From: Tortispora ganteri
Taxonomy: Eukaryota
Assembly (NCBI GenBank): GCA_003707115.1
Contig: PPNB01000012.1
Coordinates: forward strand, 62,001 to 126,000
Direction: 5' to 3'
Length of the DNA stretch: 64,000 nucleotides
Shown: positions 8,661 through 58,845 of the stretch, piece after piece
Position numbering within the stretch: the first letter of the stretch is position 1
Layout: every line of letters starts with the position of its first letter
Program-made: the position numbers and the translations under genes
Notes under the pieces: model-generated
What the model saw: the letters and a program-made list of their open reading frames with translations, nothing else
Told to the model about the DNA's origin: nothing
Database searches by the model: none

Positions 8661-10709
8661 ATGAATATTCATCGCTGTCGTTTTGTCGATTGGGAGCCTG
8701 CAGTTGTCACTACGCTTGCATTCTCCGATGCTGAAAGTGAGGACACTTTGAGGCTTGCCGCCGGCCGTGCTAACGGTGACATAGAGATTTACGACCCGCG
8801 ATACAACTGGGCCTTAGAGTCGTCGATCAAGGGTGGTACTGGCAGATCCATTGAGAGTATGACCTGGTGTAAGGGATATTTATACACTACTGGTGGAAGT
8901 GCGACTGTGGTGCAGTGGGATCTGGTGTTGGCAGCACCTATGAATCAGTATACGCTACATTCGATTGTCTGGTGTATTGCGTCAAACGGATCAAACTTGG
9001 CTGCAGGGTGCGACGACGGCGCTGTGGTAGTCCTATCGGCAGAAGGTGACCAGAAAATTTTGCAAAGACAGCCGAGTAGAGTTCTCAGCATCACCTGGAT
9101 AGATCATCGCATAGCAGGCGGTTGTGCTGACGGCCGTATACGAATATGGGATTCACAGACCGGCCATATCATTGCTACAATGACCGCCGACAAGCCCTCA
9201 AGGGACGAAGACGTAGTTATATGGTCGATAAAGACTCTCGGAGATGGAAATATTGCCACTGGAGACTCTACTGGTGCCGTATCGTTCTGGAACACTACCC
9301 ATTATACCCTTATGCAAGTTTTTCGCAACCACAAGGCCGATGTGCTTACTTTGGCCACATCTGGATCTATATTGTATTCAGCAGGTGTTGATAAGATTAT
9401 ACAATGCTATACGAAGACAGACAGGAAGTGGATGCAGACTAATTCCCGGTTACTACATTGCCATGATGTCAGAGCCTTGTCTCTACATGAGTCTCCATCG
9501 CTTAAGACGCTCGTTTCTGGCGGAGTAGAACGATCTATTGTTATAAGTTCAGCAGAACCTTTTGAGTTTGCCCAAGGTCTATTCCGCCGGATCCCCATAT
9601 CCCCACAGCGACCCATTGTCTCTGTTAACCGGTCCAAGAGGCTCATTGTACTCTGGTATGAAACGACTGTGACTATCTGGAGACTAGGTGCAGACGCAGA
9701 GCACAAATCATACCGAAAACTTGTTTCAATGCAGCTGAAGACTGAGGAATTCATTACACATGCTGCACTGTCTTTAGACGCATCACTTTTGGTAGTTGCA
9801 ACTGCCTTTGAAACTAAACTCTACAAGCTCAAATGGACTTCGGATTCACCCGCTCCTGAAGTATTAAAAGCTGATCTTCCTTTTGACCACGGCGCTAAGC
9901 TTGTTGCTTTTGCAGGTTTGGCGCAGCACCCTTCACTGGTTCTTGTCACCGAAACCTCAGATGTCCTGCGTCTACCTGCCCCGGGTGCAGACCGGCCCGG
10001 CACGATTGAAGTGATCAGTGATGAGCAAAATGACCCTTCAAACCCGATAAATATCATAGCCACAGGAGATACCGATCTTGTTGCAGTTGGTAGACTATCA
10101 GGTACAATAGACGTGTACAGCGGCGCTCGTGGCCGGCATGTATGTCGTGTACCTGGACTCGGTGCCATGATAACGTCGTTGTCGCTACATAATAATCTTC
10201 TAGTAGCAATAACGGCTGAAATGAACATTATCGAGTACGACACCTCGTTAAAATCGTTTACTAAATGGAGTAATAGGAACGCCGATGCTGTTCCCGAGGA
10301 ACTTAGATGTCTCGTGGACAAGTGTCTGGGGATCTTTTACACCGAATCTAAGCCGGAATTTATATGGCTTTGGGGAGCTAATTGGTTGGCATATATAGAC
10401 AAATCAAGCGACTTTGTGTTAGAAGAAGGCCGCAATCCTCTCAAGCGTAAACGTGATGTCCTTTCGATCGCGCGCGAAGAGACTACAGACGGTATCTCAA
10501 ATTTGGTACTGCTGCGGCGAAACGATTCGTCTGATAATGTGTCTTCCGCTGGTCAGGGAAAAGGCTACTGGATCACGTACAAATACAGGAACATACTGTG
10601 TGCATCGTCACTGTCGACCGACGAACTGGTAGTGGTTGAAAGACCGTCATTTGACATCAAATTGCCACGGTCGTTCTGGACAAAGAAGGTTGCAGTGAAT
10701 GGACTGTAG
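8661..10709 (+). CDS. UTP4: U3 snoRNP / SSU processome WD40 protein Utp4
   Basis: MNIHRCRFVD start, RLAAGRANGDIEI, WD40 repeats, HDVRAL, WLWGANW, C-terminal ELVVVERP. Confidence 0.93.
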   Translation: MNIHRCRFVDWEPAVVTTLAFSDAESEDTLRLAAGRANGDIEIYDPRYNWALESSIKGGTGRSIESMTWCKGYLYTTGGSATVVQWDLVLAAPMNQYTLHSIVWCIASNGSNLAAGCDDGAVVVLSAEGDQKILQRQPSRVLSITWIDHRIAGGCADGRIRIWDSQTGHIIATMTADKPSRDEDVVIWSIKTLGDGNIATGDSTGAVSFWNTTHYTLMQVFRNHKADVLTLATSGSILYSAGVDKIIQCYTKTDRKWMQTNSRLLHCHDVRALSLHESPSLKTLVSGGVERSIVISSAEPFEFAQGLFRRIPISPQRPIVSVNRSKRLIVLWYETTVTIWRLGADAEHKSYRKLVSMQLKTEEFITHAALSLDASLLVVATAFETKLYKLKWTSDSPAPEVLKADLPFDHGAKLVAFAGLAQHPSLVLVTETSDVLRLPAPGADRPGTIEVISDEQNDPSNPINIIATGDTDLVAVGRLSGTIDVYSGARGRHVCRVPGLGAMITSLSLHNNLLVAITAEMNIIEYDTSLKSFTKWSNRNADAVPEELRCLVDKCLGIFYTESKPEFIWLWGANWLAYIDKSSDFVLEEGRNPLKRKRDVLSIAREETTDGISNLVLLRRNDSSDNVSSAGQGKGYWITYKYRNILCASSLSTDELVVVERPSFDIKLPRSFWTKKVAVNGL

Positions 10710-42849: not shown

Positions 42850-44325
42850 CTATGACTTGCTCACAAGATAAGCAAGAAGGTCCACTTTAGTTACAACATG
42901 CAACGGGGTCAAATGACCATCAGAACGCTGTGTAACTACAACCGCAGAATTGAACTCGAAGAACTTGTTCAAAGCTGACAGCGGAGTCTCAGTGGTGATC
43001 TCCACGAACTCCTGTCTTTTCTTTTTCTTTCCAGAAGCAAGATCTAGCATCGCATTACTAGCGGGAACATCCTTTAGACGACGGAAATCGGTCATCACGG
43101 CTTCAACGGACGTCGCAGGTTTAGCACGGCCGCTCGAAATATATGACAGCAGGTTGCCTAGTGTAACTATACCAACCAACTCACCAGACTCAGAAAGCAC
43201 AGGCAACTGGTCGAATCCGTTCGCCTGTAGCACTTCAATAGCCTTTGAGGCACTATCTTTACAGGAAATAGTAACAACAGGCTTGAGGTTTAAGTCCTTG
43301 ATAGTAGCATCACCGTACGGGGAGCTCGCAGGCGCAGTATCAAGTTCAAGAGGGAGACCGTGGCTAGCCATCCATGCGTCGTCGACAAATTTAGTAAGGT
43401 AAGATCGAATAGAGTCCGGAAAAATAACAACAACAGTGGCCGTCTCAGGCAGGTCTTTGGCTGCTTCGAAGGCCGCTTGGAGAGCAGACCCTGTAGAACC
43501 TCCAACTAAAATACCCTCTGTCTGGATTACTTCTCTCGCCAGGGCGAAACTGTGCTCATCGTCAGTCTTGATCCATTTGTCGGCAATACTGCGGTCTAAT
43601 ACATCAGGGACAAAGTCGTAACCGATACCTTCAACTTGATACGGCGCAATTCCATCATTGAGCGATTCTGGAAGAGCAAGAATAGAACCCTTGGGGTCAG
43701 CGGCGACAACAGTGATATTAGGATTGTGTTTCTTTAAACCACGAGCAACACCAGTAATAGTTCCACCAGTTCCAGCACCAGCTACAATCATATCGATCTT
43801 TCCCCCAGTTTGTTTCCAGATTTCCTCGGCTGTGCCTTCTTCGTGTGCAGCCGGATTGTTAGGATTGGAGTACTGGTCAAGAATAACAGCGTGAGGAATC
43901 TCTTTTTCCAATCGCTTGGCTACACCTATGTGACTTTCAGGAGCATCCCAGGCAGCTTCGTTAGGTGTTCTAACAATTTCAGCACCTAACGCCCGTAAAA
44001 CAGACACCTTTTCGTGCGACATCTTCTCTGGCATAGTAATTATAGTACGATAGCCGCGTACAGCACCAATAAGTGCAATACCAATACCGGTATTTCCTGA
44101 ACTGGGTTCAATTAAAGTAGTGATACCAGGAGTAATTCTTCCTGATTTTTCAGCCTCATCAATCATCTTCAAGGCAATTCTGTCCTTCACTGATCCGCCA
44201 GCATTGAATAACTCAACCTTCGCCAGAATTCGCGCCTTGATTCCGTGTTTCTTCGGAACCCGGTTCAGTTGAACTAGCGGCGTATTTCCGATAGCTTCAA
44301 GTATATCACGTCTGATTTCTGTCAT
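42850..44325 (-). CDS. CYS4: Cystathionine beta-synthase
   Basis: IGNTPLV, GGSVKDR (PLP Lys), [25 protein letters not shown]-terminal CBS pair ([14 protein letters not shown]). Confidence 0.97.
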
Positions 44326-58183: not shown

Positions 58184-58845
58184 TTAAATTACATTAATGT
58201 CAAAGCAACTGGTGTAGTACTCTGTGACTCCTTCAACTTTTGGAAAGTACCATACCCATACCATCGGGTAGATCCCCTTTGGAGTACCCTCTGGTATCTT
58301 AAAATATCCCTTGCAAGGCTGCATCTTCCGCGTTGCAGTATCGCTCGTAGTACATGATCCATCGTCAAATGGTGTCGGCCCCGAAAGCACGTAGTTCTGA
58401 ACTATCTGGCCAGCCACAGTCAGCTCTACATTGGCACGCCCCGTCCACAGTATGACGAACTGTCCAGGATGAGGCTTATTATCTGGAGCGAGTCTGTCAG
58501 CTGTGACGTGTCCGTTCGGCTGGTAAATTATTTCAAGAGTCCCGCCCGATTGCGCTTGCACCATGGGGTACTTGTCGGAGTAGTAGTTGTTCATGTTCAT
58601 TTGGCTCTCCATGCAAATAGGATCGCTGCTGGAGGGGTTTAAAAGATGGTAGGTTTCAAGGTCATCAAAATGTCCAGCTGATAGTTAGTATTATCGATCA
58701 CTTTTAGTTCCATTGGGTAATGCTTACCGTATGCCCGTATGTAGCCTGTTGATAATAATGTCGACCCAACATAGCTGTTAATTTGGTCGATCCAAGAATG
58801 TGACAGGACTAAAGTGACAAAAAATATTAAAATAGTGTAGACCAT
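58184..58845 (-). CDS. Secreted protein with predicted N-terminal His (LPMO-like histidine-brace candidate); 2 exons (58845-58728, 58677-58184), 203 aa
   Basis: Splicing joins the ORF-track fragments 58639-58860 and 58184-58612: MVYTILIFFVTLVLS/HSWIDQ..GYIRAYAGHF..CMESQ..YQPNGHV..FDDGSC..WVWYF..EYYTSCFDINVI. Alternative in-frame ATG at 58860. Confidence 0.85.
58678..58727 (-). other. Spliceosomal intron (50 nt) in the secreted His-protein gene
   Basis: GTAAGC donor, perfect TACTAAC branch point, CAG acceptor; removal joins the signal-peptide exon to the downstream ORF in frame. Confidence 0.9.

Follow-up and report, generated by a model that had tools for sequence, protein, structure and literature searches.

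A split gene of Tortispora ganteri for a candidate secreted copper protein of the DUF7492 family with likeness to lytic polysaccharide monooxygenases

The window considered here is the whole stretch of DNA that was analysed, 64,000 nucleotides (nt) of contig PPNB01000012.1 of the yeast Tortispora ganteri (GenBank assembly GCA_003707115.1, positions 62,001 to 126,000). Between positions 58,184 and 58,845 it carries, on the minus strand, a gene in two exons whose spliced product, a protein of 203 amino acids (aa), starts with a hydrophobic leader followed directly by histidine. An open reading frame finder run on the genomic DNA reports just a 142-aa piece of this gene. The product belongs to Pfam PF24320 (DUF7492), a family of undescribed function, with a score above the gathering cut-off, and it is a candidate histidine-brace copper protein with the predicted fold of the lytic polysaccharide monooxygenases (LPMOs).

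Exons, intron and conserved residues

The intron is judged to be real because both exons match DUF7492 in order, the proposed join scores best and the alignment of the product runs over the junction without a gap. Exon 2 matches PF24320 positions 57-237 with E 5.5e-20 (72.1 bits; gathering cut-off 27 bits), and exon 1 matches positions 2-29 with E 0.08, scoring 11.8 bits on our own profile of relatives. When all 23 GT-AG pairs that keep the frame open were scored on a profile of 86 relatives, the query excluded, the proposed join came out on top with 201.0 bits, the runner-up reaching 165.9 bits and exon 2 alone 177.5 bits; alternative introns or acceptors were ruled out. Among the 15 best GT-AG joins it is the only one with a branch-site motif. 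The spliced product aligns gap-free across the junction with a Lipomyces orthologue (85/188 identical), and in 68 of the 150 relatives listed the top local alignment crosses it as well, many of the others being fragments. Left unspliced, the frame meets a stop after 68 codons. The original prediction, made from the DNA letters, of a canonical 50-nt intron giving a 203-aa protein is thus borne out, and on this evidence the gene is taken to be real and spliced. The predicted leader of 15 aa with His behind it, the N-G-H histidine codon, the four cysteines and the C-terminal W-x-W and E-Y-Y-x-S-C-x-D elements also lie where they had been placed.

Conservation was counted in 218 sequences aligned to the profile, a set that includes 12 near-identical Lipomyces and 5 Aphanomyces sequences, fragments and at least one non-member; each count refers to the rows with a residue in that column. 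A fairer measure for the first histidine than the one in Table 1 comes from the 115 sequences that have a hydrophobic leader: 109 of them carry the His after it, as two of the six misses visibly do too. A hydrophobic stretch precedes the His in 80/81 relatives, and the residue before it is small in 85/86 (A 43, G 20, S 14, C 6, T 2), the remaining one beginning at the His itself. Small residues before the cleavage point are the usual pattern of signal-peptidase sites. The column of the N-G-H histidine is invariant in two separate family alignments, with Asn94 conserved in 199/209 rows. The alignment confirms the near-invariance expected for His1, the N-G-H histidine and a tyrosine; the conserved tyrosine, located where the last strand begins in each predicted model, is Tyr194 and not Tyr193 (8/199). 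Further conserved positions are Trp18 (139/141), Trp180 (205/207), Trp182 (207/207) and the acids Asp20, Asp145 and Asp199. Cys61, Cys148, Cys161 and Cys197 are kept in 180/185, 204/209, 204/209 and 195/202 rows, respectively, and their loss in pairs suggests two disulfides, the support for the Cys61-Cys197 pair being weaker. The chain ends six residues past Cys197 with no hydrophobic or glycosylphosphatidylinositol (GPI) tail, and it has no N-glycosylation sequon. Directly before N-G-H this protein has Pro, which is also found in 61/209 family rows, whereas all eight Lipomycetales orthologues have Glu there. The orthologue of Limtongia smithiae begins His-Pro-Gln instead of His-Ser-Trp, so that the His is kept and the next residues are changed.

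Table 1. Coordinates of the gene, its signals and inferred functional residues, with a second gene of the same genome (window positions unless stated otherwise)
Feature	Position	Strand	Remarks
Exon 1 (start codon, leader, His1, first strand)	58845-58728	minus	118 nt, 39 codons + 1 nt
Phase-1 spliceosomal intron, 50 nt	58727-58678	minus	GTAAGC donor, CAG acceptor
Branch site of the intron, TACTAAC	58690-58684	minus	
Exon 2 (remaining DUF7492 beta-sandwich domain, stop codon)	58677-58184	minus	
In-frame upstream ATG, possible true start	58860-58846	minus	leader becomes 20 aa with a Lys; mature protein the same
Predicted signal peptide, ending Val-Leu-Ser before His	58801-58845	minus	hydropathy; relatives have small residues at -1 and -3
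His16 (mature His1), putative first histidine-brace ligand	58798-58800	minus	140/140 rows, flattered because the profile was built from His-starting sequences
His96 (mature His81) in N-G-H, putative second histidine-brace ligand	58508-58510	minus	207/209 rows
Glu192 (mature Glu177), predicted second-sphere Glu	58220-58222	minus	154/198 rows; compare Glu139 of AfAA11B (PMC12186267)
Tyr194 (mature Tyr179), predicted axial Tyr	58214-58216	minus	196/202 rows; aligns with the AA11 Tyr
Cys148 + Cys161, predicted disulfide	58313-58354	minus	208 rows: both present 203, both lost 5, single never
Cys61 + Cys197, predicted disulfide	58615-58613, 58207-58205	minus	174 rows: both present 165, both lost 3, one lost 6
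Separate BIM1-like gene	1243-2019 of L002 (G000:C624)	minus	PF20238, 131.6 bits, GPI-like tail

The position of the start codon may have to be moved to the upstream ATG of Table 1; in the orthologues of Lipomyces doorenjongii and L. starkeyi the His is residue 21. An TATATAAG element stands at 58885-58878 (minus strand), 25 nt ahead of the upstream ATG and within the 91-nt gap that follows the stop of the neighbouring Spa2-like gene, and could be the TATA box of this gene or the 3'-end signal of the Spa2-like one. Besides the Spa2-like gene, the neighbours encode an amidase, an acyl-CoA dehydrogenase, Pex2 and an importin, which suggests no functional cluster. The start of the window is overlapped by a chitin synthase gene (PF03142, 934.8 bits; G000:C613, 61570-63135, plus strand) about 57 kb away from the DUF7492 gene, a proximity that is probably a coincidence. 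Five further short intron-like GT..CTAAC..AG matches were noted (6706-6637, 5535-5480 and 5460-5411 on the minus strand, 8737-8784 and 43891-43982 on the plus strand), and other split genes may be hidden there.

Members and distribution of DUF7492

A HMMER search of 1.84 billion cluster representatives gave 188 relatives at E<=0.001, of which the best 150 were listed, and DUF7492 was recognised at E<=0.01 in 100 of the 101 relatives scanned for it; a word-index homologue search with exon 2 gave no homologue among its 12 candidates. The named members come from Lipomycetales (Lipomyces, Dipodascopsis, Myxozyma, Limtongia), Taphrinomycotina (Neolecta, Saitoella, Savitreella), Pezizomycotina, Mortierellaceae, Zoopagomycota and oomycetes. 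In the databases they are called hypothetical, uncharacterised or DUF7492, apart from an automatic chitin-binding type-4 label on two and a folylpolyglutamate synthetase label on two others, the latter probably being fused gene models. AA11 and LPMO labels are missing from all named relatives, and NCBIfam assigned no family to the four proteins checked. No Tortispora member appeared among the homologue matches listed, although the neighbouring Pex2 has a match in Tortispora caseinolytica that is 94% identical.

The closest relatives are eight Lipomycetales orthologues of 215-220 aa, for example LIPSTDRAFT_4109 of Lipomyces starkeyi (ODQ72736.1), all of them single-domain proteins that are 44-48% identical to the query over the mature domain. 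In a midpoint-rooted tree of 57 domains out of about 218 sequences, the query groups with these eight (support 98/88) within a clade of Ascomycota (100/99). Horizontal transfer was considered and is not indicated by this position, and inheritance looks vertical. There is one DUF7492 match in the 9.6-Mb genome, and such a single copy, together with the Lipomycetales grouping, is more in keeping with an inherited housekeeping gene than with a degradative family that has expanded.

Some relatives are larger. Among 110 scanned, CBM96 is fused in four, Carb_bind in one (Syncephalis) and Tos1 domains in two, while GPI- or membrane-like tails were seen in 20 of 76. One of the two fusions with the Tos1/YJL171C cell-wall protein (P0067) lies in the oomycete branch; one relative has a weak TSP1 domain and several others have Cys-rich tails lacking a Pfam match. 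In the ESM Atlas, exon 2 falls nearest to DUF7492 clusters (0.91) and then to an automatically named Mucoromycota LPMO cluster (0.86), so the LPMO likeness can be said to be latent in the databases. With DUF7492 clusters left out, the top cluster for the Lipomyces orthologue (0.90) is 83% viral, mostly Nucleocytoviricota, and a viral structure library gave weak matches, one of them at E 7.9e-4 with a template modelling (TM) score of 0.36.

Predicted fold and comparison with characterised copper proteins

Two structure models were compared with solved proteins, a full-length model of a Lipomyces orthologue (mean predicted local distance difference test score, pLDDT, 88.4) and a model of exon 2 of this gene (pLDDT 91.8), and both fold as beta-sandwiches. 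In a library of 48,161 solved chains, 21 match the orthologue model at Z>=8, every one of them LPMO or LPMO-like. The best is the AA15 protein TdAA15A (5MSZ; Z 10.8, root-mean-square deviation (rmsd) 3.3, 150 residues aligned), with His21 of the model, the residue behind the leader, placed onto residue 1 of the chain, as in most of the alignments. Close behind come AA9 (up to 10.1), AA10 (9.9), AA11 (9.7 and 9.4), AA13 (9.7), X325 (9.0) and fusolin (9.0), all of these AA numbers denoting auxiliary activity families; AA14 and AA16 reach Z 7.2, and no chain titled AA17 is among the matches listed. Foldseek gave 35 matches to this model at E<=0.001 (best 5.5e-6, TM about 0.43), those listed being all AA9 or AA10. 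The exon 2 model reaches a best Z of 8.4 (rmsd 3.4, 129 aligned). Identity to solved chains is 6-21% and, the Z values being nearly tied, the protein is about equally far from every solved LPMO family. The structure comparisons thus give an LPMO fold for the orthologue model with no family standing out, and an immunoglobulin-like beta-sandwich of the LPMO type is predicted for the query.

By sequence, the nearest of the characterised families is AA11. The family profile searched against PDB sequences gave three matches, all of them AA11 (E 1.6e-8, 1.9e-8 and 4.4e-6), which are limited to the C-terminal strands, about positions 152-234 (65-70 positions) of 310, and the single query reached AA11 with E 0.16 and 1.4. 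In the alignment Glu192-x-Tyr194 falls on the Glu-x-Tyr of AA11. PMC12186267 describes the Tyr-Glu pair as unique to AA11, with the Glu crucial for productive use of H2O2, and gives Tyr-Gln for AA9 and Phe-Glu for the cited AA10s. With the AA11 enzymes (AoAA11, 4MAH/4MAI; AfAA11A, 7P3U; AfAA11B, 9EXJ/9HDG) the query shares the fold (Z 9.4-9.7 for the orthologue model), His1, the Tyr-Glu pair and the C-terminal strands P-x-G-x-Y, W-x-W and E-x-Y-x-x-C. It differs from them in its H-S-W start, in the lack of any sequence match over the N-terminal two thirds, in an extra F-D-D-G-x-C...C disulfide loop and in the second His, which stands in N-G-H at mature position 81 (73-123 over the family), whereas in AA11 it lies at 60-61 in H-G-G-G-S-C, a motif found in 0/218 DUF7492 sequences. 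On this sequence comparison the protein probably works like an AA11, while it is not shown to be one.

The other families share the architecture and little of the sequence. AA15, AA9, AA10 and AA13 have the fold (Z 8.1-10.8) and, in most rows, place a His onto His1, with 6-17% identity to the orthologue model; the Tyr-Gln of AA9 contrasts with Tyr-Glu here. Besides DUF7492 the query has no Pfam match, and none at E<=1 to PF03443 (AA9), PF03067 (AA10/AA15) or PF20238; weak sub-threshold AA9 or LPMO_10 matches occur in 7/110 relatives, and one of the 110 matches PF03067 at E 5e-4, below the cut-off. X325/Bim1 (LaX325, 6IBH; PF20238) has the histidine brace and an LPMO-like fold, with Z 9.0 to the orthologue model. 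The query differs from it in lacking a PF20238 match and a GPI tail, in keeping Glu-x-Tyr and in its domain of 188 as against 150 aa; an Asp as additional copper ligand is described for X325/Bim1 in PMC13353379. The T. ganteri genome has a separate BIM1-like gene (Table 1), the predicted mature N-terminus of which appears to be Gln-His and not His.

Other proposed histidine-brace families were compared as well. AA18, which we take to be CelOCE, presumably has a different fold. Its description is attributed to Santos et al. 2025 (PMC13431639, PMC13353379). PxLPMO1, with His1/His52 and models built on X325 (PMC8035642), and the Egh16-like TrsA, with His24/His72 and a Phe (PMC12377627), are secreted fungal copper proteins like the query and have been put forward as LPMOs apart from the classic families; considered as possible members of DUF7492 already in the literature, both were rejected for the spacing of their His and their axial residue. 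None of PxLPMO1, TrsA and AA18/CelOCE was described as DUF7492. A full-text literature search, with supplements and most subscription journals outside its reach, found no paper that names or describes DUF7492 or PF24320 and none on LPMO, AA11, yeast and Lipomyces together; the main text of the yeast carbohydrate-active enzyme survey PMC8254220 contains neither 'AA11' nor 'LPMO'. The text of the Pfam/InterPro entry may already mention the likeness to LPMOs. The claim that the protein could not be placed in a characterised AA family holds for the named LPMO families that were compared, yet it needs the correction that the protein is a member of the existing DUF7492, nearest to AA11.

Proposed activity, alternatives and significance

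The conserved His, His, Tyr and Glu, the residues typical of a signal-peptidase site ahead of the His in relatives, the predicted LPMO fold and the absence of a Pfam match to a named LPMO family all support the earlier view of a histidine-brace copper protein that stands alone and falls outside the characterised AA families. Signal peptidase would free His1, the amine and imidazole of which would bind one copper together with His81; Tyr179 would take the axial position and Glu177 a place in the second sphere (numbers of the mature protein), as in AA11 enzymes. It is very probable, from sequence and models together, that the protein is secreted, exposes His1 and holds one copper in the His1/His81 brace with axial Tyr179. 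Catalysis, and after it substrate and role, are more weakly inferred than the copper site. With H2O2 or O2 the reduced copper would hydroxylate a glycosidic C-H bond, by which the chain would be broken, and the likeliest substrate would be chitin or beta-glucan of the organism's own wall during its remodelling. We give slightly more credence than doubt to an enzyme with a copper histidine brace, belonging to an unclassified LPMO family, which would oxidise cell-wall chitin or beta-glucan, and the odds are put a little on the side of reductive activation followed by oxidative cleavage of polysaccharide chains, most likely those of its own wall. A polysaccharide target is supported by the CBM96, Carb_bind and Tos1 fusions and by the GPI- or membrane-like tails among the relatives. 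Chitin synthase and GH18 matches in the genome only show that chitin is relevant.

Several observations weigh against such an enzyme, and some of them would suit a histidine-brace protein that does not cut polysaccharides, but serves in the buffering or delivery of surface copper in the manner of X325/Bim1 or makes H2O2 from small reductants in the manner of AA16. X325/Bim1 has brace and fold, yet does not cut polysaccharides according to PMC7924993, and the same is given for two AA16 proteins in PMC10088020; the Z of X325 is within about 1 of most true LPMOs. The full-length model is that of an orthologue 45% identical to the query and not of the query itself, the exon 2 model, without the first strand, has no Foldseek match at E<=0.001, and NIS1 of Magnaporthe (8XGL), a beta-sandwich that is not an LPMO, stands among its top ten at Z 8.2. 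The same NIS1 structure was matched by the orthologue model at Z 7.4, near the LPMO range. In the family, Glu192 is replaced by Ala in 23 and by Gln in 8 of 198 rows, and A-A-Y stands for E-x-Y in 5/5 Phytophthora and Hyaloperonospora proteins checked, which keep both His and the Tyr and possibly have a non-catalytic or retuned copper site; the Glu is retained in 2/2 Aphanomyces proteins checked. Fusions to binding modules are few, have been read from gene models that are unverified and do not occur in the yeast orthologues, and the substrate has been assigned from distribution only. Searching the genome for AA9 and LPMO_10 gave no match, which points only weakly the same way, as the AA9 control was also blank and absence is not shown thereby. 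Nevertheless, Glu-x-Tyr is kept in the query and all eight Lipomycetales orthologues, and some relatives carry carbohydrate-binding modules. Without a GPI tail or PF20238 match, with Glu-x-Tyr in place and with a separate BIM1-like gene in the genome, Bim1-like copper handling becomes less likely, and of the three roles first put forward (wall remodelling, polysaccharide oxidation, copper handling) it is the less favoured one. A copper protein of this non-cutting kind is on the whole unlikely, with an appreciable chance nonetheless.

The remaining alternatives concern the substrate, the classification and the expression of the gene. A new LPMO family that cuts beta-1,3-glucan oxidatively, and of which basal yeasts retain one gene to remodel the wall, has leads in the range over fungi and oomycetes, in the Carb_bind and Tos1 fusions and in the GPI-like tails of about a quarter of the full-length relatives. 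Beta-1,3-glucan is the wall polymer common to fungi and oomycetes, the walls of the latter being rich in glucan and poor in chitin, and Carb_bind (PF10645) is presumably the beta-1,3-glucan-binding carbohydrate-binding module CBM52; to our knowledge no LPMO cuts pure beta-1,3-glucan, and this proposal is regarded as improbable. The protein could also be a very divergent, chitin-active AA11 that the CAZy curators would file in that family, so that no new family would arise. The only PDB sequence matches are indeed AA11, the AA11 structures are, with 18-21% identity, the most similar in sequence of the leading structural matches to the exon 2 model, and the pair said in PMC12186267 to be theirs is present; yet the match covers a minor part of the profile, the motif and spacing of the second His deviate, the AA11 structures do not score above AA15, AA9, AA10 and AA13, and the absence of AA11 or LPMO labels extends to every named relative, which makes such a classification quite improbable. 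That the intron stays unspliced or the gene is decaying, with no mature protein made, is hardly credible: only 91 nt lie between the stop of the Spa2-like gene and the first ATG, the query sits on a long branch (0.92, compared with 0.2-0.36 for most orthologues) and Pro has taken the place of the Glu before N-G-H, but the splice signals are canonical, the frame is intact with every near-invariant residue, that Pro is common in the family, and the neighbouring Pex2 has diverged to a similar degree from yeasts outside Tortispora (39-50% identical).

The enzyme of an unclassified LPMO family thus being the preferred interpretation, DUF7492 is a candidate family of the LPMO type, broad in fungi and oomycetes and with the full set of LPMO residues, and the query, as judged from sequence and models, would be a candidate founding member and not an orphan. 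So far as we know, each LPMO family has been opened by one biochemically tractable member, and several of them brought a new substrate. As a compact single domain with neither N-glycosylation sequon nor tail, the T. ganteri protein should be easy to express and assay, and Lipomyces starkeyi has a clear orthologue that could be knocked out. The family would test whether the Tyr-Glu site called unique to AA11 occurs in a second family, and whether yeasts remodel their own wall by oxidative cleavage.
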